DNA of 16,754 bases from Anaerolineae bacterium (lineage in GTDB: Bacteria > Chloroflexota > Anaerolineae > Anaerolineales > UBA11579), in the NCBI GenBank assembly GCA_004297445.1, contig SCUK01000024.1, positions 1-16,754 on the forward strand, given 5' to 3'. The notes under the pieces were generated by a model. That model did not search any database. It saw only the letters and a list, made by a program, of their open reading frames with translations, and had not been told where the DNA came from. The number at the start of each line of letters is the position of its first letter. The stretch's first letter is position 1. Positions 4,422 to 12,893 of the stretch are shown here, piece by piece. The position numbers and the translations under genes are program-made.

Positions 4422-4874
4422 ATGCGCTGCCCGTTCTGCCACAGTGAAGATGGTTCCAAAGTGATTGACACCTCGCATGATGCGCGTGGCGGCATCCGGC
4501 GGCGGCGCGAATGCAAGGATTGCGGCCAGCGCTACTCGTCCTACGAGCGCCCCATCCTCGCCACTCCGCTCATCATCAAGGAAGACGGCACCCGCGAAGA
4601 GTTCGACCGCGAGAAACTGCTGCGCGGCCTACGCATCTCGTGCGCAAAGCGCCCTGTCTCCGCCGCCGACCTGGACCGGCTGGCTGGCGAAATTGAAGCC
4701 CATCTGCAACGTCTCGGCAAAGCCGAAGTGTCCTCACGCGTCATCGGCGATATGGTCATCAACGGCCTCAAAGACCTGGACGCCATTGCCTACATGCGCT
4801 TCGCCATCGTGTATCTCAAATTGGATGACCTTCAGTCGGTCCGCAGTCTGCTGGACCGGCTGATAGAGAACTAA
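4422..4874 (+). CDS. nrdR: Transcriptional repressor NrdR (zinc ribbon + ATP-cone)
   Basis: N-terminus MRCPFCHSEDGSKVIDT...RRRRECKDCGQRYSSYE matches the zinc ribbon CxxC...CxxC. The ATP-cone region is about 150 aa, typical of NrdR. RBS AGGAAAA lies upstream. Confidence 0.92.
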   Translation: MRCPFCHSEDGSKVIDTSHDARGGIRRRRECKDCGQRYSSYERPILATPLIIKEDGTREEFDREKLLRGLRISCAKRPVSAADLDRLAGEIEAHLQRLGKAEVSSRVIGDMVINGLKDLDAIAYMRFAIVYLKLDDLQSVRSLLDRLIEN

Positions 4875-4882
4875 GACCCTAC

Positions 4883-4920
4883 CCCGCCGGCAGCCATTTT
4901 GCCGGAGGGGTGTCTGTGTT
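4883..4920 (+). other. Imperfect hairpin in the nrdR–nrdJ spacer (possible partial terminator/attenuator)
   Basis: CCCGCCGGCA (4883-4892) pairs with TGCCGGAGGG (4900-4909), 9/10 pairs across a 7-nt loop. It is followed by the U-rich GTGTCTGTGTTT. Confidence 0.3.
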
Positions 4921-4949
4921 TACAAAGTTCGTTATTAGGAGAGCCCGCC

Positions 4950-7900
4950 ATGTTGAATAAGACCGCCCCCAAACCCCCCGTCGCCGGCCTGCTGCCCACA
5001 CCGGAACGCCCCGCCGACCTGCCGCCCGCCCGCCTGACCGAGAACGCCCTGTCCGTCTTCCTGCGGCGTTACGCCCGCCGCGGCGCGGATGGCAAGCCGG
5101 TCGAAACGGTGGAGGACACTTTCTGGCGCGTGGCGTATCACGTGGCCAAGGTGGAGACGGAGTGGGACGCGGACGAAATGGCGGCCGCCCGCGACTACTA
5201 CGCCCTCCTCGCCGAAAAGCGCTTCTTCCCCAACTCGCCCACCTTCACCGGTGCCGGCACGCCCCTCGGCCAGCTGGCCGCCTGCTTCGTCCTGCCCATC
5301 AGCGACGATATGGGCCGCCGCGAGTCCGGCATTTTCCAGACCCTGCGCGACGCCGCCCTCATTCAGCAGACCGGCGGCGGCAACGGCTTCGCCTTCTCCC
5401 GCCTGCGCCCCAAGAACGCCCTGGTCAAGACCTCGGCGGGCAAGGCCACCGGGCCGGTGGGCTTCCTGCGCGTCTACGATGAGGCTTTCGGCGAGATCGC
5501 CCAGGGCGGTACCCGCCGCGGCGCCAACATGGGCGTCCTGCGCGTCGACCACCCGGATGTGGAAGAGTTCATCACCTGCAAGACCAACGAGAACGCCATC
5601 ACCAACTTCAATATCTCCGTGGGCATCACCGATGCCTTTATGCGCGCCGTCCAGAACGACGAAGAATGGCCCCTGCGCTTCCCGGATGTGAGCGACCCGC
5701 GCTACAAGACCTTTGAGGGCACGCTCGAAGACGCCGAGAAGGCCGGCCTGCCCATCCTGACCCACAAGACCGTCAACGCCCGCGAACTGTTCAGCAAGAT
5801 CGTGGAGCACGCCCACCACAACGGTGAGCCCGGCCTCCTGTTCCTGGACGCCGCCAACCGCGAGAACCCCGTCCCGCACCTCTACGCCCTTGAAGCCACC
5901 AACCCCTGCGTGACCGGCGATACGCTCATTTACACGGCTGAGGGTCTGCGGCGCGCCGACGAACTAGCCGGGGCCAGCCGCCCGGTGGATGTGATTGTGG
6001 ACGGCCGATTTGGAACCGATACTTTCCAGCCTGCCTCGCATGTTTTCGCCACGGGTGTGAAAGATGTGATTCGCCTCAAGACCGTGGAAGGCTATGAAGT
6101 TCGCCTCACGGCTGACCATCGGGTGATGACCGAGACCGGCTGGTCGGCAGCGAAAGACCTGCGTCCGGGCGACCGTGTGCATCTGCTTAACCGCCCCGGC
6201 GGGTTTGGCCCGGCGGGCACGCCGGAACTTGGCATGGTACTGGGCTGGTTGGTCGGGGACGGCACTGTCAACCAGGTGCGCGCCGTGTTGTCCTTCTTCG
6301 GCCGCGAGAAAGCTGAACTGGCGCCGATGTTCGCCGAAGCAGTGACGGGCCTGGTGGACAGGGACGGACGCTATTCTGAGAGCCTCGGGCGCCGTTATCC
6401 GGTGGGGCTTACCGACATCCCTGATCGCGACGAGGTGCGGATCCAGTCCGACCGACTGCTGAAACTTGCGGCGCAATATGGTCTCGCAGACGAAAAACTC
6501 CAGGTACCGGCGGTCATCTTCACTGCCAATGAACCTACCCAGCGCGCCTTCCTGCAGGCTCTCTTCACCGCCGATGGTACTGTGAACGACGGTGGCGAGA
6601 AGGGCTGCAGTGTGCGGCTCACTTCCATAAGTTACACGCTCCTGCAGGATGTCCAGCGCATGCTTCTTAATTTCGGTATCGCCAGCCGCATCTATGCCGA
6701 ACGGCGCTCTGCCGGTTACCGCAGCCTGCCGGACGGAAAGGGCGGGTTGGCCGAATACTGGTGCGCCGCGTATCACGAACTGGCGATCACCAAAGCCAAT
6801 CTGATTCAATTCGCCAACTGCGTCGGGTTCCTGAGCGAAGCCAAGCAATCCGCGCTACTCGATTATTTGAGCCCCATGCCGCGCGGTCCTTACCGGGAAC
6901 GCTTCACGGCCCGGGTGGACTACGTCGAACCTGATGGTCGCGAGACCGTCTATGACCTCCAGCAGCCGACGACGAACTCCTTCATCGCCAATGGGCTGGT
7001 GGTACACAATTGCGGCGAGCAATGGCTCGGCCCCTACGAGAATTGCTGCCTCGGCAGCATCAACCTCGCCGAGCACTTCGGCCCGGATGGCAGCGTGGAC
7101 TGGGAGAAACTGCGCCAGACCACCGAGCAGTCCACCCGCTTCCTCGATGACGTCGTGCAGGGCAATGCCTATGTGCCCGCCGTCCCGCAACTTAAGGACG
7201 CCGCCTACCGGGCGCGCCGCATCGGCCTCGGCATCATGGGCATGGCGGACCTGATGTACCATGCCGGCATCCGCTACGGCTCCAAAGAAGGGCAGGAGTT
7301 CGTCGCCCAGGTAATGGAATTCGTGCGCTACGAGTGCATGCGCACCAGCGTCGAACTCGCCAAAGCCCGCGGGCCATTCGAGGCCATCGAGGGTAGCCTG
7401 TACGACCCGAAGGACCTCAAGTGGTCGCCGCCCCAGCCGGTGGACCTCTACACCAGCGACTTTGGCCGCCCCGCCCTGGATTGGGTCGGCATTGTCAAAG
7501 GCATCAAGAAGCACGGCATCCGCAACGCCGCCCAGACCACCATCGCCCCCACCGGCACCATCGCCACCGTGTCCGGCTGTGAGGGCTACGGTTGCGAGCC
7601 GGTCTTCGCCCTGGCCTACATCCGCCACGTCAATGATAACGGCAAGGACCTTAAACTGACCTACACCAGCCCGCTGTTTGAAGCCGCCCTGGCGAAAGCC
7701 GGGCTGGACGAAACCGCGCGGGCACGCATTGTCGAGCAGGTCGTCGCCACCGGCACCTGCCGCGGCGTGGCTGGCGTGCCGGAGAACATCGCCAACACCT
7801 TCGTCGTCTCATCGGACATCACCGCCGAGGAGCACGTCCGCATGCAGGCCGCGTTGCAGGCTTTCGTGGACAACAGCCTGAGCAAGACCGTCAACTTCCC

Positions 7901-8630
7901 GCCCGAAGCCACCGAGCAGGACGTGGCCACCGCCTACATGCTGGCCTGGGAACTGGGCTGCAAGGGCATCACCGTGTACGTCACCGGCTCGCGCGACAAG
8001 GTCGTGCTGGAAACCCACGAGACGGCCAAGGCCAAACAGCCCGAACCCGCCGTCACCGAGCTGCCCGCCCTGTGGAACGAATCCAAGAAGCCGCGCCCGC
8101 GTTTCCTGCCCGGCTTCACCTACTACACCAACACGCCCGTTGGCAAAGCCTTCGTCACCATCAACGAGAACGGCGGCGGCCAGCCCTTCGAGGTCTTCCT
8201 CACCACTGCCAAAGCCGGCTCCGAGACCGCCGCCGTGTCCGAGGCCATTGGCCGCCTGATTTCCTACCTGCTGCGCCTTGCCTCGCCCGTCGCGCCCCGT
8301 GCCCGCCTGCGCGAGATTTTCAGCCAGCTCAACGGTATCGGCGGCTCGCGCTCGATGGGCTTCGGCCCCAACCGCGTCGGCTCCCTGCCGGATGGCGTTT
8401 CGCAGGCCCTCGCCGAGTACCTGGACAGCACCGAGCACCGCTTCACCGACCAGCCCGCCAAACCCGCCAATGGTAACGGCAATCATGCTCTCATACCGCA
8501 GGATGGCGAGCCCCAGCCGGTCTTCAAGCCGGAAGCCATCGGCGACATCTGCCCGGAGTGCGGCCACGCCTCCGTCATCAACGAGGAGGGCTGCCGCAAG
8601 TGCTATTCCTGCGGCTATAGCGAGTGCTAA
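4950..8630 (+). CDS. nrdJ: Ribonucleotide reductase, adenosylcobalamin-dependent class II type (NrdJ-like), interrupted by an in-frame intein
   Basis: AGGAGA lies 10 nt before the ATG at 4950 (MLNKTAPK...). The ORF track extends to 4899 but with no SD. Extein motifs include [12 protein letters not shown] and the active-site finger ATNP|CGEQ, restored after intein removal. The C-terminus has a Cys cluster CPECG...[12 protein letters not shown]. Extein length is about 858 aa with no ATP-cone. Confidence 0.85.
5907..7010 (+). mobile_element. Intein (368 aa) with LAGLIDADG homing-endonuclease domain, inserted at the catalytic Cys of the NPCGE motif of nrdJ
   Basis: It begins [14 protein letters not shown] (block A). 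It has the TxxH motif LTADHRV (block B). Two LAGLIDADG motifs are present: [11 protein letters not shown] and [12 protein letters not shown]. It ends ...GLVVHN, followed by the +1 Cys of CGEQ. Confidence 0.85.
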
Positions 8631-8755: not shown

Positions 8756-9040
8756 ATGGAGACTGACCGCCTCCAGTTCCGCGCCCACGCCGTCCAGCGC
8801 ATGTTTGAGCGCGGCATCAGCGTGGATGAGGTTCTGGCTCTACTGCGCGAGGGCGAAATAATCGAAGACTACACCGCCGATATGCCCGCCCCCGGCGAGC
8901 TGCGGCTGGGCTGGGCGGGGGCACGCCCCCTGCATGCCGTCTTCGCCTTCGATGCCGCCCGTACCGCCGCCGTGGTGGTGACCGCCTACGAACCGTCTCT
9001 CGCCGACTGGGGCGACACCTTCCGCCAGAGGCGCGCGTGA
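8756..9040 (+). CDS. DUF4258-family protein (toxin component of a DUF4258/YgiT-type TA pair)
   Basis: 94 aa: ...AVQRMFERGISVDEVLALLREGEIIEDY...LRLGWAGARPLHAVFAF...VVVTAYEP... is the typical DUF4258 pattern. Its stop overlaps the next gene's start (ATGA). Confidence 0.8.
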   Translation: METDRLQFRAHAVQRMFERGISVDEVLALLREGEIIEDYTADMPAPGELRLGWAGARPLHAVFAFDAARTAAVVVTAYEPSLADWGDTFRQRRA

Positions 9041-9222
9041 TCTGCGTCATGTGCCGGGTCGCCGACCCCGAACCGGGGTTTGCCACCCTCACGCTTGAAT
9101 GCGACGGCTATACCACCGTGGTCAATGCCGTGCCCGCCGCTATCTGCCCGGAGTGTGGCGAAGAATATCTGGACGAAGCCGTCGTGCGCCGCGTCCTGGC
9201 CGCCGCCCTGGCCGGGGAGTAG
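9037..9222 (+). CDS. YgiT-type zinc-finger protein (MqsA-N-terminal-like antitoxin partner of DUF4258)
   Basis: 61 aa with two CxxC pairs: CVMCRV ... TLECDGYTTVVNAVPAAICPECGEEYLDEAV. This matches the YgiT-type zinc-finger family. It overlaps the upstream gene by 4 bp. Confidence 0.8.
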   Translation: MICVMCRVADPEPGFATLTLECDGYTTVVNAVPAAICPECGEEYLDEAVVRRVLAAALAGE

Positions 9223-9262
9223 AATAAGGGCGAGGTGAGGACCACGAAACAAGGAGCATCCC

Positions 9263-9535
9263 ATGAGCGCAAAACACCACTTCACCCAGGAACAGGCGAA
9301 GGAAATCGGCGACAAACTGGGCATCACCTGGGCGGCGTTTGACGTGGAGCAGTTCCGCATGGGGCTGAACGTGGAACTCGAACACGGCCTGCACGACCCG
9401 GCCACGGACGTGACCGGTAACGACCCGCTAACCACCGGCAAAATCGCCCTGGCGCACCTGAACGAATTCCCCGATTACTACACCCGCCTGGACAAAATGG
9501 AACGCGAAGCGAAACAGGAGTTGGGGTTGGAATAG
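9263..9535 (+). CDS. Small conserved hypothetical protein (possibly DUF5661-like)
   Basis: AAGGAG RBS lies 8 nt upstream. 90 aa: ...GLNVELEHGLHDPATDVTGNDPLTTGKIALAHLNEFPDYYTRLDKME... The family assignment is from memory only. Confidence 0.45.
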   Translation: MSAKHHFTQEQAKEIGDKLGITWAAFDVEQFRMGLNVELEHGLHDPATDVTGNDPLTTGKIALAHLNEFPDYYTRLDKMEREAKQELGLE

Positions 9536-9541
9536 GGGTGC

Positions 9542-9570
9542 TTGACCTATAGTACTATATACAGTATCAT
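9542..9570 (+). promoter_or_regulatory. Putative hicA promoter (-35 TTGACC, 17 nt, -10 TATCAT) overlapping a perfect 12-bp palindrome TATAGTACTATA (9548-9559)
   Basis: Read from the sequence. The palindrome sits between -35 and -10, a typical autoregulatory operator position for TA operons. Confidence 0.4.
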
Positions 9571-9583
9571 ATAGGCGGGTTGA

Positions 9584-9835
9584 ATGACCAAACGCGAAAA
9601 ACTGCTGGAACGCATCAAGAACAACCCCAAAGGGGTTTCGCCGGATGAACTGCACCAACTGCTCACCCACTTCGGATTTGCCCAGCGCAAATCCGGCGGC
9701 GGCTCCAGCCACCGCAATTACACCAAAGACGGCTGCCCGTATGTGCTTACCGTGCCGTTCAAGAAGCCGTTGAAAGCGGTGTATGTGATCAAGGCATTGC
9801 AGTTCATTGAAGAATATGGAAACACGGAAGAGTAA
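9584..9835 (+). CDS. hicA: HicA-family toxin-like protein (YcfA/HicA fold)
   Basis: 83 aa: ...LTHFGFAQRKSGGGSSHRNYTKDGCPYVLTVPFKKPLKAVYVIKALQFIE... The G-S-H motif and the TVP...LK...IK.L segments are HicA-like. It is followed by a HicB-like gene. Confidence 0.7.
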   Translation: MTKREKLLERIKNNPKGVSPDELHQLLTHFGFAQRKSGGGSSHRNYTKDGCPYVLTVPFKKPLKAVYVIKALQFIEEYGNTEE

Positions 9836-9868
9836 GGTGTGCTGATAGTTGAACAATCGCCCCCACCC

Positions 9869-9928
9869 TGTCATTCTGAGCGAGCGGCAGCAGCCAGTCC
9901 TGAACGCAGTGAAGGAAGCGAAGAATCT
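9869..9928. repeat. Short intergenic repeat copy B, split by an internal insertion of about 30 bp (TGTCATTCTGAGCGAGCG ... GAAGGAAGCGAAGAATCT)
   Basis: The 5' half (9869-9886) and 3' half (9911-9928) align to copy A at 8634-8660. It lies in the 170-bp hicA–hicB spacer. Confidence 0.55.
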
Positions 9929-10005
9929 ACCGGACAATCTAGAAGAACGACCGATTGCAGATCGAGATTGCATAAAGTAGCAACACAACTTGAGCGAGTG
10001 ACTAT

Positions 10006-10368
10006 ATGAAAAAGAAACTTGACCACTACCTTTCCTTGCCCTACAGCATCGAACTGACCCCCGACGAGGACGGCTGGGTGGCCGCCGTTAAAGAACTCCC
10101 CGGCTGCATCAGCCAGGGTGACACCCAGGTCGAAGCCCTGCAAATGATTCAGGATGCCATGCGCGGCTGGCTGGAAACCGCGCTGGAAGACGGCAAACCC
10201 ATCCCCGAACCGCGCCTGACGGACGATTACTCTGGCAAGTTTGTCGTCCGCGTCGCCAAGTCCCTGCACCGCCGCCTCGCCGAAGCTGCCGCCCAAGACG
10301 ACGTCAGCCTCAACCAGTATGTGGTTACTGCCCTCGCCAGCGCGGTCGGGATGAAGGTAAATAAGTAA
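10006..10368 (+). CDS. hicB: HicB-family antitoxin (RNase H-like N-domain + C-terminal RHH DNA-binding region)
   Basis: 120 aa: ...YSIELTPDEDGWVAAVKELPGCISQGDTQVEALQMIQDAMRGWLE... then ...GKFVVRVAKSLHRRLAEAAAQDDVSLNQYVVTALA (RHH-like). Confidence 0.8.
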   Translation: MKKKLDHYLSLPYSIELTPDEDGWVAAVKELPGCISQGDTQVEALQMIQDAMRGWLETALEDGKPIPEPRLTDDYSGKFVVRVAKSLHRRLAEAAAQDDVSLNQYVVTALASAVGMKVNK

Positions 10369-10369
10369 C

Positions 10370-11221
10370 ATGCCCGGTATATTATTTCGACGAATTCGGA
10401 TATTTCAGATTTCTGACCCACAATCGCGTGGAGTCCTAGATCAATTTCACGATTTCCGAATCGAGGTTGAACTTGATCCGGGAGAGCCCTATGCAATTGA
10501 GAAAAAGCTAGTCGTTGTATCACTTTTTGATGATGCCTATTATGCTCTTTCTTCTAGAGAAATTAATGACCCGAAGAGAGTAATAGAAGAGAAGGCTAGA
10601 ATCGCTCATTATGTCTCAACCCATATCGTAAGCCGATCTCCTCAAGAACTGGTGTCATTATTTCCGCTTCAGATGCAAGTAAGTGTTGAGGATGTGAGAC
10701 GGCTTCAAACTGTAGATCCAGAAAGAGTGGAGATTCAGACTTGGCACGAAATCAAAGTTGCTAAGGAGCCTGAGGGCCGTCGAGTCTTTATAAGTTGCGG
10801 CCAGTCAACAGAATACGAAAAAAATCTCGGTGAAACAATTTCGCGCCGAGTTAAAGAACAAACGGGGTTAGATGGATATTTTGCACAAAATCAACAAAGT
10901 CTAGAAGGGTTAACCCAGAATATCTTCAATGCTATTCATAATGCGGACGGGTTTATTGCAGTTATGCACAGGCGCGACAATCTCGATGGAAAGCGGGAGG
11001 AGTATCGAGGCTCTGTATGGGTTGAGCAAGAAATAGCAATTGCTGCATTTATGGTTCAGTCATTAGGACTGCGATTGCCCTTTAGGGTTTATGTTCAGAA
11101 AGGAATTCGTCGAGAAGGAGTTCGTGGGTTTATCTTGCTAAACCCGAAAGAGTTCGAGAAAGACGAGGAAGTTTTAACTGACCTAGAAGGATTCTGGCCC
11201 GAATTATTGGGTAGAGTGTAA
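10370..11221 (+). CDS. Hypothetical two-domain protein: N-terminal domain of unknown function + C-terminal TIR-like / nucleoside-2-deoxyribosyltransferase-like (flavodoxin-fold) domain with a candidate catalytic Glu
   Basis: The ATG lies 1 nt after the hicB stop. GC content drops abruptly here, from about 65% to about 43%. The C-terminal half RRVFISCGQSTEYEKNLGETISRRVKEQTGLDGYFAQ...IFNAIHNADGFIAVMHRR...YRGSVWVEQEIAIAAFM follows the TIR/DUF1863/NDT pattern: VFIS at the start, then G...YF, then I..AI..AD.FIAV, then W.E..IA. I cannot run a database search, so the family call is by pattern only. Confidence 0.55.
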   Translation: MPGILFRRIRIFQISDPQSRGVLDQFHDFRIEVELDPGEPYAIEKKLVVVSLFDDAYYALSSREINDPKRVIEEKARIAHYVSTHIVSRSPQELVSLFPLQMQVSVEDVRRLQTVDPERVEIQTWHEIKVAKEPEGRRVFISCGQSTEYEKNLGETISRRVKEQTGLDGYFAQNQQSLEGLTQNIFNAIHNADGFIAVMHRRDNLDGKREEYRGSVWVEQEIAIAAFMVQSLGLRLPFRVYVQKGIRREGVRGFILLNPKEFEKDEEVLTDLEGFWPELLGRV

Positions 11222-11262
11222 GCGAGCAGCTTAATTGAGCCGTTTTGCAGATTAGAGGAAAT

Positions 11263-11622
11263 ATGGTTATTGATCGAATATTACAGGTCGCACCTCCGGG
11301 CACAAGGATTCCGAAGCCAAGACAGAATGGATATTACATTGTAAAAGGGGATGGAATAAGAAGGAAGGAAAGAGCACTCATATATGAGTTCACAAATCGC
11401 TCGAACCCCGCTAAGCCGCACATAAAAGGAATAACAAATTCGGAATTTGAAATAAGTTTTGAACGCCTCGTAACTATCGGTGAGTTCAGCCGCAAGTGGT
11501 ATAAAGCCAAATTTCCGAAGGCGGCAAGACAGGATCCCTGTAACTTCACAACTATCGGGGGGCTATTCATATTGTTAGGGATTGCTACATACTCAAGCCC
11601 CGGAGTATATCTAAGAAGATAG
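11263..11622 (+). CDS. Small hypothetical protein (120 aa) with a single C-terminal hydrophobic segment, possibly a membrane anchor
   Basis: GAGG lies just upstream of the ATG at 11263. The ORF track starts at an in-frame TTG at 11245. The C-terminus ...CNFTTIGGLFILLGIATYSSPGVYLRR contains an about 17-aa hydrophobic stretch. The gene is low-GC like the gene before it. I recognise no family. Confidence 0.5.
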   Translation: MVIDRILQVAPPGTRIPKPRQNGYYIVKGDGIRRKERALIYEFTNRSNPAKPHIKGITNSEFEISFERLVTIGEFSRKWYKAKFPKAARQDPCNFTTIGGLFILLGIATYSSPGVYLRR

Positions 11623-11858
11623 ATTTTTCATTTCCCTCTCTCGCCTTCCCACCTCCCCGTCTTCCGTTAACATCCCTCCCTGAACCATTATCATAGAGGA
11701 ACCATGACCACCGAACGCGTCGCCGCACCTTCCCCTGCGCCGAATATTCACTTCTTTGCGCTCCTTGCGAGCGCTATGTTCACCGCCCTCTTCGCGTGAG
11801 ATGCATTCCATTCTCTTTGCGATACAATACCCGCCACACATTCCAGGGAGTCTTCGGC

Positions 11859-12482: not shown

Positions 12483-12893
12483 ATGCCCCATACCTACCTC
12501 AACCCCCTGCACCTCTTCAACAGCACGCAATACGGCTTTTCGCAGGTCGTTGCAACGCGTGGCGGCACCACCGTCTACATGTCCGGTCAGGTCGGCTGGG
12601 ATGAGAACGAAGCCATCGGCGCACCCGGTGACCTCGCCGAGCAAACCCGCCGCGCCCTGCTCAACCTGGAACGCGCCGTGCAGGCCGCCGGCGGCACGCG
12701 CGATGACGTCGTCAGTCTGCGCATCTACATCGTCGGCGAGCACATCCACAATGCCGCCGGAGTAAAAGAGGGCCTGCTAGCCTTCTTTAACCCGCGGCGT
12801 CTTCCGGCCAGCACCTGGGTCGGCGTGTCCGCCCTCGCCAGCCCGGACTTCCTCATCGAAATCGAAGCCATCGCCGTCATCGGAGCAGGCTGA
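12483..12893 (+). CDS. ridA: RidA/YjgF/TdcF family protein (reactive-intermediate/enamine deaminase-like)
   Basis: 136 aa: ...TRGGTTVYMSGQVGWDENEAIGAPGDLAEQTRRALLNLERAVQAAGGTRDDVVSLRIYI...PASTWVGVSALASPDFLIEIEAIAV is the classical YjgF/RidA pattern. Confidence 0.85.
   Translation: MPHTYLNPLHLFNSTQYGFSQVVATRGGTTVYMSGQVGWDENEAIGAPGDLAEQTRRALLNLERAVQAAGGTRDDVVSLRIYIVGEHIHNAAGVKEGLLAFFNPRRLPASTWVGVSALASPDFLIEIEAIAVIGAG

Follow-up and report, generated by a model that had tools for sequence, protein, structure and literature searches.

The closest described counterparts of the gene analysed here are Swarozyc (bioRxiv 10.64898/2026.05.01.722283) and Evangelion (bioRxiv 10.64898/2026.06.25.731849), single-gene systems that join a TIR-like DUF4062 core to an auxiliary domain and deplete NAD+. 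In Swarozyc the TIR-like core, with catalytic E97, is held inactive in a head-to-head oligomer, and binding of the phage portal by the auxiliary domain triggers NAD+ depletion (bioRxiv 10.64898/2026.05.01.722283). The stretch of DNA examined here, called the window, comprises the 16,754 bp of one contig from an Anaerolineae metagenome-assembled genome (MAG; GCA_004297445.1, SCUK01000024.1). Directly behind its hicB antitoxin gene lie two adjacent low-GC genes, A and B, and the analogy suggests that gene A is a form of this known layout, a TIR-like core plus an auxiliary domain in a single gene, which curated profiles do not see. The explanation we somewhat favour is that A would be a TIR-like N-glycosidase that stands alone and carries a sensor domain of its own, and B a co-transferred bystander. 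The parts of gene A are as follows.

10370..11221, + strand: gene A, open reading frame (ORF) of 283 aa with two domains, a family-specific N-terminal one and a C-terminal one resembling TIR domains and those of nucleoside 2-deoxyribosyltransferases (NDT)
10370..10759, + strand: N-terminal domain of A (aa 1-130), alpha/beta, pLDDT >90 in the AlphaFold2 (AF2) model
10781..11218, + strand: TIR/NDT-like domain of flavodoxin fold at the C-terminus of A (aa 138-283), predicted to be the catalytic domain, an N-glycosidase (NADase-type)
11012..11032, + strand: S215-V-W217-V-E219-Q-E221, TIR-type S-x-W-x-x-x-E motif at the start of helix alphaC; the E221 codon is 11030-11032

The product of gene A is identical to the NCBI hypothetical protein EPO32_04310 (Anaerolineae MAG). 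Its AF2 model, built from 46 full-length homologues, has a pLDDT of 90 and a pTM of 0.63 and separates into two domains. The C-terminal domain is parallel beta/alpha, with five strands alternating with helices, the flavodoxin-like arrangement of the TIR superfamily (Pfam clan STIR). A Foldseek search with this domain returned a top 20 made up nearly entirely of TIRs plus BcmB, the ranking running from the SPARTA TIR-APAZ subunit through the SARM1 TIR, BcmB and plant TIRs to TIR-STING (E 1e-4 to 1e-2). The domain also carries a Glu after the central strand, the structural mark of the NDT/N-ribosyltransferase superfamily (MilB, BcmB, Rcl, NDT, LOG); its motifs are TIR-like, yet its best structural score is to MilB. 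An earlier reading of the window, made from the sequence only, had proposed a TIR/flavodoxin-like fold for the C-terminal half of A, and the model and the structural matches bear this out.

The motifs on which that sequence-only reading relied, VFIS, GYF, FNAIHNADGFIAV and SVWVEQEIAIA, are all present in A and are invariant, or nearly so, among the 46 full-length homologues. The residues S215, W217 and E221 are invariant in each of three alignments (46, 30 and 50 sequences), and in the AF2 model the motif lies at the N-terminal end of helix 216-232, past the third strand (194-199). SARM1 reads W638-V-H-K-E642-I-V-T-A in printed primer sequences (PMC8266388), and the W217-x3-E221 spacing of A is the same as its W638-x3-E642. 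The NADase activity of prokaryotic TIRs needs that Glu (PMC7282519). Given the invariant motif and the SARM1-like Trp-Glu spacing, E221, at W+4, is the predicted catalytic Glu of A, an equivalence of motif and secondary-structure position rather than of residue-level structural alignment. The conserved Glu after Trp singled out by the earlier reading is thus indeed invariant; E219, beside it, is invariant to the same degree.

Twenty-four residues are invariant across three architectures of the domain, and the window copy keeps all of them: F140, I141, S142, C143, G144, Q145, E150, G154, Y170, A172, H200, R202, R213, S215, W217, E219, Q220, E221, A223, F227, E249, G250, R252 and F262. Most lie at or directly past predicted beta strands (AF2), and in this fold ligand-binding sites are found at or just after beta strands. 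The invariant pattern indicates an enzyme with a phosphate-rich substrate, for which NAD+ or a nucleotide would fit. Fold and motif together make it very likely that the TIR-like assignment of A is right, and A is predicted from its model to be a previously unannotated enzyme of the TIR/NAD-cleaving fold.

The N-terminal domain of A is modelled with strands at 8-14, 18-20, 26-36, 44-53 and 100-104 and helices at 54-59, 69-87, 91-97 and 106-112. Its conserved residues are F9, G21, P37, G38, R77, D116 and W125, and it has no sequence relative in the PDB. We infer that it is an auxiliary domain with a sensor or regulatory role. The whole of A had no match in the curated libraries Pfam (E<=1), PADLOC, NCBIfam and PHROG, and no NDT, MilB or Rcl chain came up at E<=10 when PDB sequences were searched with the single sequence or with a profile.

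Full-length homologues of A are rare. Among 5.8 billion proteins there are about 60, with 34-56% identity, all of them from metagenomes or MAGs, and none is present in 185,579 species-representative genomes. In those genomes 40 loci carry only the C-terminal domain, mostly in MAGs of Acidobacteriota and Eremiobacterota. A profile of this domain found 1,162 clusters at E<=1e-3 (388 at E<=1e-30) among 1.84 billion representatives, and the best 150 matches of that search are all close relatives. The roughly 1,160 clusters (50% identity) come mostly from soil Acidobacteriota, Eremiobacterota and Chloroflexota.

Across these relatives the C-terminal domain is joined, at either end, to at least three recurrent unannotated companion regions. 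It stands behind the N-terminal domain seen in the window, or is itself N-terminal and followed by an extension of about 145 aa (28 among the matches listed), or follows a different N-terminal region of about 100-260 aa (14 among the matches listed), or carries both extensions. The companion regions had no match in Pfam or PADLOC. Secondary hidden Markov model (HMM) matches hinted at a permuted domain order, in which the extension of TIR-first relatives would correspond to the N-terminal domain of A; this was rejected, as hhalign gave a probability below 1% for the N-terminal domain of A against each of the two commonest companion domains. Sensor-effector immune proteins usually pair a conserved catalytic core with accessory domains that are exchanged. 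One member of the family, P0057 (257 aa), bears the JGI name "CRISPR/Cas system CMR subunit Cmr4 (Cas7 group RAMP)"; it has no Pfam domain and aligns with A at 47% identity over 73% of A's length, so the name looks like a mis-annotation.

The genomic settings of the A family vary. Clustering all ORFs within 3 kb, all against all, found no neighbour common to more than three loci in either the A or the B family. A-family genes have a median GC 4 points under that of their flanks and never exceed it by more than 2 points (46 loci), which is consistent with mobility of the family. One full-length homologue lies about 1-2.5 kb downstream of a CBASS pair (CD-NTase and Cap15), another near HEPN_AbiU2 and another after a Phd antitoxin, and a SIR2-STAND protein is encoded 4.6 kb from a relative of the C-terminal domain. 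The 147 nearest neighbours include Mrr_cat (four times), TIR_2 (twice), Cas1, PD-Lambda and capH. A 360-aa full-length homologue, P0044, lies at the end of a prophage (L133, 3702-13083), where it is preceded, in this order, by terminase large subunit, YaaC, putative AbiC and a 102-aa ORF abutting its start codon, and followed by a phage integrase and then a type I restriction-modification system (HsdM, HsdS, HsdR), an arrangement typical of a defence hotspot carried by a prophage. In two independent contigs (L139, 5547-9054, and L140, 78-2834) the C-domain relative P0093 (362 aa) has an Nmad2 (PF18753) gene 65 nt upstream of it and, about 100 nt downstream, a DUF5677 gene, and these three genes may form a small conserved unit in one sub-clade. 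In L139 a hicAB pair lies directly upstream of this group. Relatives of the window's HicB are found at only one (L020) of 46 A-family loci.

The contig of a near-best A homologue (55% identity; L005, 1-3129) also carries nrdR (70%) and a class II ribonucleotide reductase (65-72%, without the intein region described below) less than 3 kb from the A homologue, on the opposite side and strand as compared with the window at 4422-8630. The hosts of the two contigs are related, with A-type genes near the nrd operon in both and without strict synteny.

Like Swarozyc and Evangelion, A unites in one polypeptide a diversified auxiliary domain and a TIR-like core that is divergent and has a conserved Glu, and like them it is patchily and horizontally distributed, with variable neighbourhoods, some of them beside defence genes, and is distant in sequence from the canonical TIR and NDT families. 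The DUF4062 pocket of TEP1 points three Arg toward a bound sulphate, and A has three invariant Arg (R202, R213 and R252). A TIR-like core with a variable auxiliary domain in a solitary mobile gene is thus what A presents. However, window A has no match to Pfam DUF4062 (PF13271), only one of 30 relatives reaching it at E 0.12, and the auxiliary domain of KpSwz is C-terminal and of helix-turn-helix (HTH)/winged-helix type, whereas that of A is N-terminal and alpha/beta without a recognised fold. A match to DUF1863/ThsB-type or other curated TIR-clan profiles was not significant for A; since the DUF4062, TIR_2 and ThsB-type profiles all fail on A, it is not placed in the DUF4062 family. We propose, by analogy, that A would work like Swarozyc and Evangelion, yet is not a member of that family.

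With the canonical TIR NADases (SARM1, SPARTA TIR-APAZ, plant TIRs and TIR-STING) A shares the VFIS beta-A strand and the S-x-W-x-x-x-E spacing, and we take the segment between beta-C and alpha-C to be about 15 residues long in both A and SARM1. It differs in having no significant profile match and a short loop at the BB-loop position. To our knowledge, the invariant SCGQ, H200, R202, R213, E219, Q220, E249 and R252 of A lie outside the TIR consensus. The NDT superfamily (MilB/BcmB, Rcl/DNPH1 and nucleoside 2-deoxyribosyltransferases) has a Glu at the same topological place, after the third or fourth strand, and a Gly-containing loop after beta1. Unlike these enzymes, A has a TIR-like Trp at -4 and VFIS strand, gives no profile match to them, has an extra 130-aa domain and is encoded by a gene that behaves as sporadic and mobile, not as part of a pathway; we know of no Trp at -4 in NDT, Rcl or MilB. 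Thoeris (ThsB TIR with ThsA SIR2/Macro-SLOG) likewise has a TIR-fold protein with a conserved Glu, encoded in an accessory region of a bacterial genome. In contrast, A has HicB, B and YetF as neighbours, no effector gene is conserved beside the A family, and B is a winged helix rather than a SIR2, Macro, SLOG or transmembrane effector fold. PADLOC finds neither ThsA nor ThsB here, in agreement with the earlier remark that A and B do not match the Thoeris architecture.

Under the explanation we favour, the C-terminal domain of A would be a divergent TIR-like N-glycosidase, most likely an NAD+ glycohydrolase using E221 with W217. The N-terminal domain, specific to window-type proteins, would keep the enzyme inactive, by analogy with the single-gene TIR-like systems, and a trigger such as a phage component would promote assembly of A, leading to depletion of NAD+ or nucleotides and to growth arrest. 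That A is an immune or abortive-infection NADase-type enzyme seems to us an even call, made by analogy. A and B would both have come with a single foreign block of 1.28 kb that entered at the 3' end of hicB, which would account for A lying next to B, and both are probably read through from the hicAB promoter.

11263..11622, + strand: gene B, 119 aa from ATG, with an N-terminal three-stranded sheet and a C-terminal winged helix, soluble

The sequence-only reading correctly recognised two low-GC ORFs after hicB. It counted 120 aa for B; the protein has 119 aa from the ATG at 11263 or 125 aa from a TTG at 11245, and the ATG is favoured by a GAGGA ribosome-binding site and by the point from which all homologues align. 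It also took B for a membrane-acting partner with a transmembrane (TM) tail, a view that the modelled structure contradicts. The AF2 model of B is globular (pLDDT 95, pTM 0.89) and consists of an N-terminal helix, a three-stranded sheet, a three-helix bundle and a beta-hairpin wing, the bundle and wing of the C-terminal half superposing on known winged-helix domains. The hydrophobic stretch FTTIGGLFILLGIAT reaches a 19-residue Kyte-Doolittle maximum of 1.38, below the membrane-helix threshold of 1.6, and a 15-residue mean of 1.93. Across the family the median is 0.69, none of 115 members reaches 1.6, and the segment contains polar or charged residues in 111 of the 115. The supposed tail is a conserved CNFTTIGG[LV]F.LLG.A.Y segment that forms helix 94-105 (helix 3) and leads into the wing. 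Given the globular model and the sub-TM hydropathy across the family, B is almost certainly not a membrane protein.

B departs from other winged-helix proteins in that its would-be recognition helix, TTIGGLFILLG, is hydrophobic rather than basic, which makes classical DNA reading by this modelled helix doubtful, and in its extra N-terminal three-stranded sheet and invariant K18, P19, R34 and E61. No HTH family matched B by sequence. Our best guess is a small soluble protein that binds nucleic acid or a ligand. None of the more than 1,026 homologues found with its profile, about 120 aa in length, has an annotation. The genes are solitary, stand in unrelated contexts and have GC below their flanks; none was found in IMG/VR contigs, INPHARED phages or PHROGs, and two Vibrio MOBF conjugative plasmids carry one as a hypothetical protein. 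On these plasmids (L135, 5300-6327, and L136, 5212-6327) the B homologue lies about 270-300 nt downstream of a Rid-family gene, and the window has a Rid/YjgF-family gene at 12483-12893, 0.86 kb downstream of B. A link between Rid and B was rejected as probably coincidence: the window Rid protein has no tblastn match in any other of the loci compared, including both Vibrio plasmid loci. Separately, the B profile marginally matches the eukaryotic/archaeal ribosomal protein uL5 (best E 0.0026; 48 uL5 sequences at E<=10) over residues 21-75 (window 11323-11487), a sheet-helix unit (F.V...G.RR.EK..Y); the resemblance could hint at an RNA-binding module or be chance. Between B and yetF, at 11705-11800 (+), is an unannotated 31-aa ORF, MTTERVAAPSPAPNIHFFALLASAMFTALFA, which has a hydrophobic C-terminus and a GAGGA ribosome-binding site; its final codons overlap the longest possible yetF ORF (GTG at 11796). 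A repeat search found that the start of this ORF and the start of B share the 13-nt string TAGAGGAAnnATG.

The block that holds A and B, and the genes before it, are the following.

10351..11634, no strand: low-GC foreign block (two-state likelihood scan), left edge in the last six codons of hicB
10006..10368, + strand: hicB antitoxin gene (Pfam HicB, E 1.5e-14; the profile ends at residue 110 of 120)
9584-9835, + strand: hicA (Pfam, E 2.8e-4, under the cut-off at 21.4 bits against a gathering threshold of 27)
9263-9535, + strand: DUF5661 gene (Pfam scan)
8756-9222, + strand: DUF4258 toxin and MqsA-like antitoxin (Pfam DUF4258, E 7e-20; MqsA-like zinc ribbon, E 3.5e-5, under the Pfam cut-off)

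The block, about 1.28 kb long, contains A and B and nothing else and is compositionally foreign: its GC is 0.426 as against 0.606 outside, with a log-likelihood ratio of 61 in the two-state scan and a consistent sliding GC profile. Gene A has a GC of 0.430 and gene B of 0.433, compared with 0.608 for the remaining window, and GC at third codon positions is 0.35 in A and 0.43 in B as against 0.68-0.83 in the neighbouring genes. The sequence-only reading placed the fall exactly at the ATG of A and the return to 65% after B. The drop is real, yet it begins 19 nt 5' of that ATG, within the final six codons of hicB, and 3' of B the GC climbs to just 0.51-0.58 (the yetF gene) and then to 0.65 from about 12450. 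Those six codons read ATGAAGGTAAATAAGTAA (MKVNK-stop), and the change-point falls within them (window 10351-10369). The inserted DNA therefore seems, from the sequence, to have replaced the native 3' end of hicB and provided its stop codon. The ATG of A lies 1 nt past the hicB stop (TAAcATG), which the earlier reading took for translational coupling. With the left edge of the block inside hicB, this gap is best read as an insertion junction rather than as evolved coupling, and relatives of A are not systematically linked to hicAB. The observation that the foreign block lies beside two toxin-antitoxin loci is confirmed by the composition scan and by Pfam, the gene order being DUF4258, MqsA-like, DUF5661, HicA, HicB, the A-B block and YetF. 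The spacer between hicA and hicB is unusually long at 171 nt and has no significant fold (window 9584-10368).

Further upstream, a class II (B12-dependent) ribonucleotide reductase of 1,243 aa at 4899-8630 (+) is interrupted by an intein. Its matches to T. maritima NrdJ (PDB) are split between aa 63-338 and 703-1037, residues 350-440 resemble the RecA PI-MtuI mini-intein (E 1e-11), and the junctions in translation read ...TNP|CVTGDT...VVHN|CGEQ.

In the sequence-only reading, A and B made up a dedicated two-gene defence or signalling module in which A, TIR-like, was the sensor or signal generator and B its membrane effector. The two genes are indeed on the same strand, 41 nt apart, with a shared anomalous GC in a block of their own, and the 15-residue hydropathy of B can be taken to favour a membrane role. 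Yet HMM searches of six-frame ORFs, with which tblastn agrees, found no A-family gene at the B-family loci (0/84 and 0/2) and no B-family gene at the A-family loci (0/46 and 0/11, 5 of the 11 independent). The pairing, so far unique to this contig, is thus missing from 86 B-family and 57 A-family loci, gene neighbourhoods are not conserved in either family, and the segment said to span the membrane is helix 3 with the wing of a globular protein. A and B are, with high probability, not a conserved module; the two-gene proposal is largely refuted and we consider it very improbable. Given the near-identical GC of the two genes in one uninterrupted block, they probably moved together once, which is physical linkage and not evidence of shared function. 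A gene-cassette array of integron type, comprising the toxin-antitoxin pairs, DUF5661, A and B, would suit the short, uniformly + strand genes of 8756-11622, whose GC steps through 0.69, 0.59, 0.52-0.60 and 0.43, and the want of conserved neighbours in both families. But the whole window holds, on either strand, no attC-like RYYYAAC...GTTRRRY pair at 50-160 nt spacing, intergenic hairpins are not significant (z -0.6 to -1.8 after B; +0.9 and +0.2 between hicA and hicB), only 41 nt lie between A and B, and the cassette ends show no close inverted repeats. At the block borders no flanking direct repeats, tRNA or Rfam/noncoding RNA were found, integrase genes not having been looked for in the rest of the window. 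Such an array is scarcely credible here. Alternatively, the TIR-like domain could be an inert scaffold or adaptor, or A and B decaying cargo with no current function, as the short BB-position loop and the lack of a promoter-like site upstream of A within the block might be read. This, too, is highly unlikely: both ORFs are intact with starts that match those of homologues, B has a strong ribosome-binding site, and all 24 invariant residues are kept, such loop invariance being typical of an active enzyme.

The chief alternative explanation is a nucleotide hydrolase akin to NDT/MilB, that is, a metabolic or stress nucleotide N-glycosidase (NDT/MilB/Rcl/LOG type) acting for instance on nucleoside monophosphates or modified nucleotides, with no immune role and with an N-terminal domain serving oligomerisation or regulation. 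The many invariant polar residues, among them three Arg, a His and the SCGQ loop after beta1, suit a small phosphate-bearing substrate, conservation of the domain is strong, many loci contain housekeeping genes and nothing else, and some prokaryotic TIRs possibly act outside immunity, according to reviews (PMC7282519). A metabolic enzyme fits less well with the TIR-type S-x-W-x-x-x-E motif and VFIS strand, with TIRs at the top of the Foldseek ranking, and with a gene that is sporadic and rare, exchanges its companion domains, lies consistently under the GC of its flanks, has no conserved metabolic neighbour and in several neighbourhoods stands near toxin-antitoxin or defence genes. On balance we judge it unlikely. 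Several observations nevertheless weigh against a stand-alone TIR-like immune enzyme with B as bystander. Thirty diverse A-type domain sequences gave only single-member sub-threshold Pfam matches (TIR_2 0.047, DUF4062 0.12, CAP12-PCTIR_TIR 0.27), a profile search of PDB sequences with the A family found nothing, and hhalign of A against the SARM1 TIR gave 1.4% probability with the VFIS strand alone aligned. PADLOC has no model for any of the architectures, and the loop at the BB-loop position is short in the AF2 model. Mean column identity in the C-terminal domain is 51%, unusually high for a defence effector; the A family is absent from IMG/VR viral contigs, INPHARED phages, PHROGs and PLSDB plasmids; and housekeeping genes make up the majority of its neighbours. 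The uniform GC of A and B also implies joint transfer at least once, and the two may be functionally linked in this lineage. A sequence-level bridge from A to the TIR or NDT families was sought and rejected, Pfam, NCBIfam, PDB profile and hhalign searches all being non-significant; 50 members of other architectures likewise gave no TIR-clan match in Pfam.

For scans of this kind the locus carries a caution, as a uniform low-GC two-gene block beside toxin-antitoxin loci mimicked an operon-level system, and comparative data turned the pair into two independent solitary genes that had co-travelled and the "TM tail" into the core helix of a winged-helix protein. A possible further step, which we offer tentatively, is that A founds an unrecognised sequence-orphan clade of TIR-like NADases acting as single-gene abortive-infection sensors with at least three new interchangeable sensor domains, all of them missed by Pfam 2025, PADLOC 2.0 and NCBIfam 20; B, for its part, would be the founder of a family of small, mobile winged-helix proteins encoded by solitary genes, with more than 1,000 members. 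Should A prove to be an immune protein with NADase-type activity, it would be another deep branch of TIR-like enzymes after the DUF4062 proteins Swarozyc and Evangelion. Such a branch, missed by every curated profile searched, would be found mainly in soil phyla that are little studied and in which few defence systems have been put to the test, and would bring with it several sensor domains with mappable triggers.

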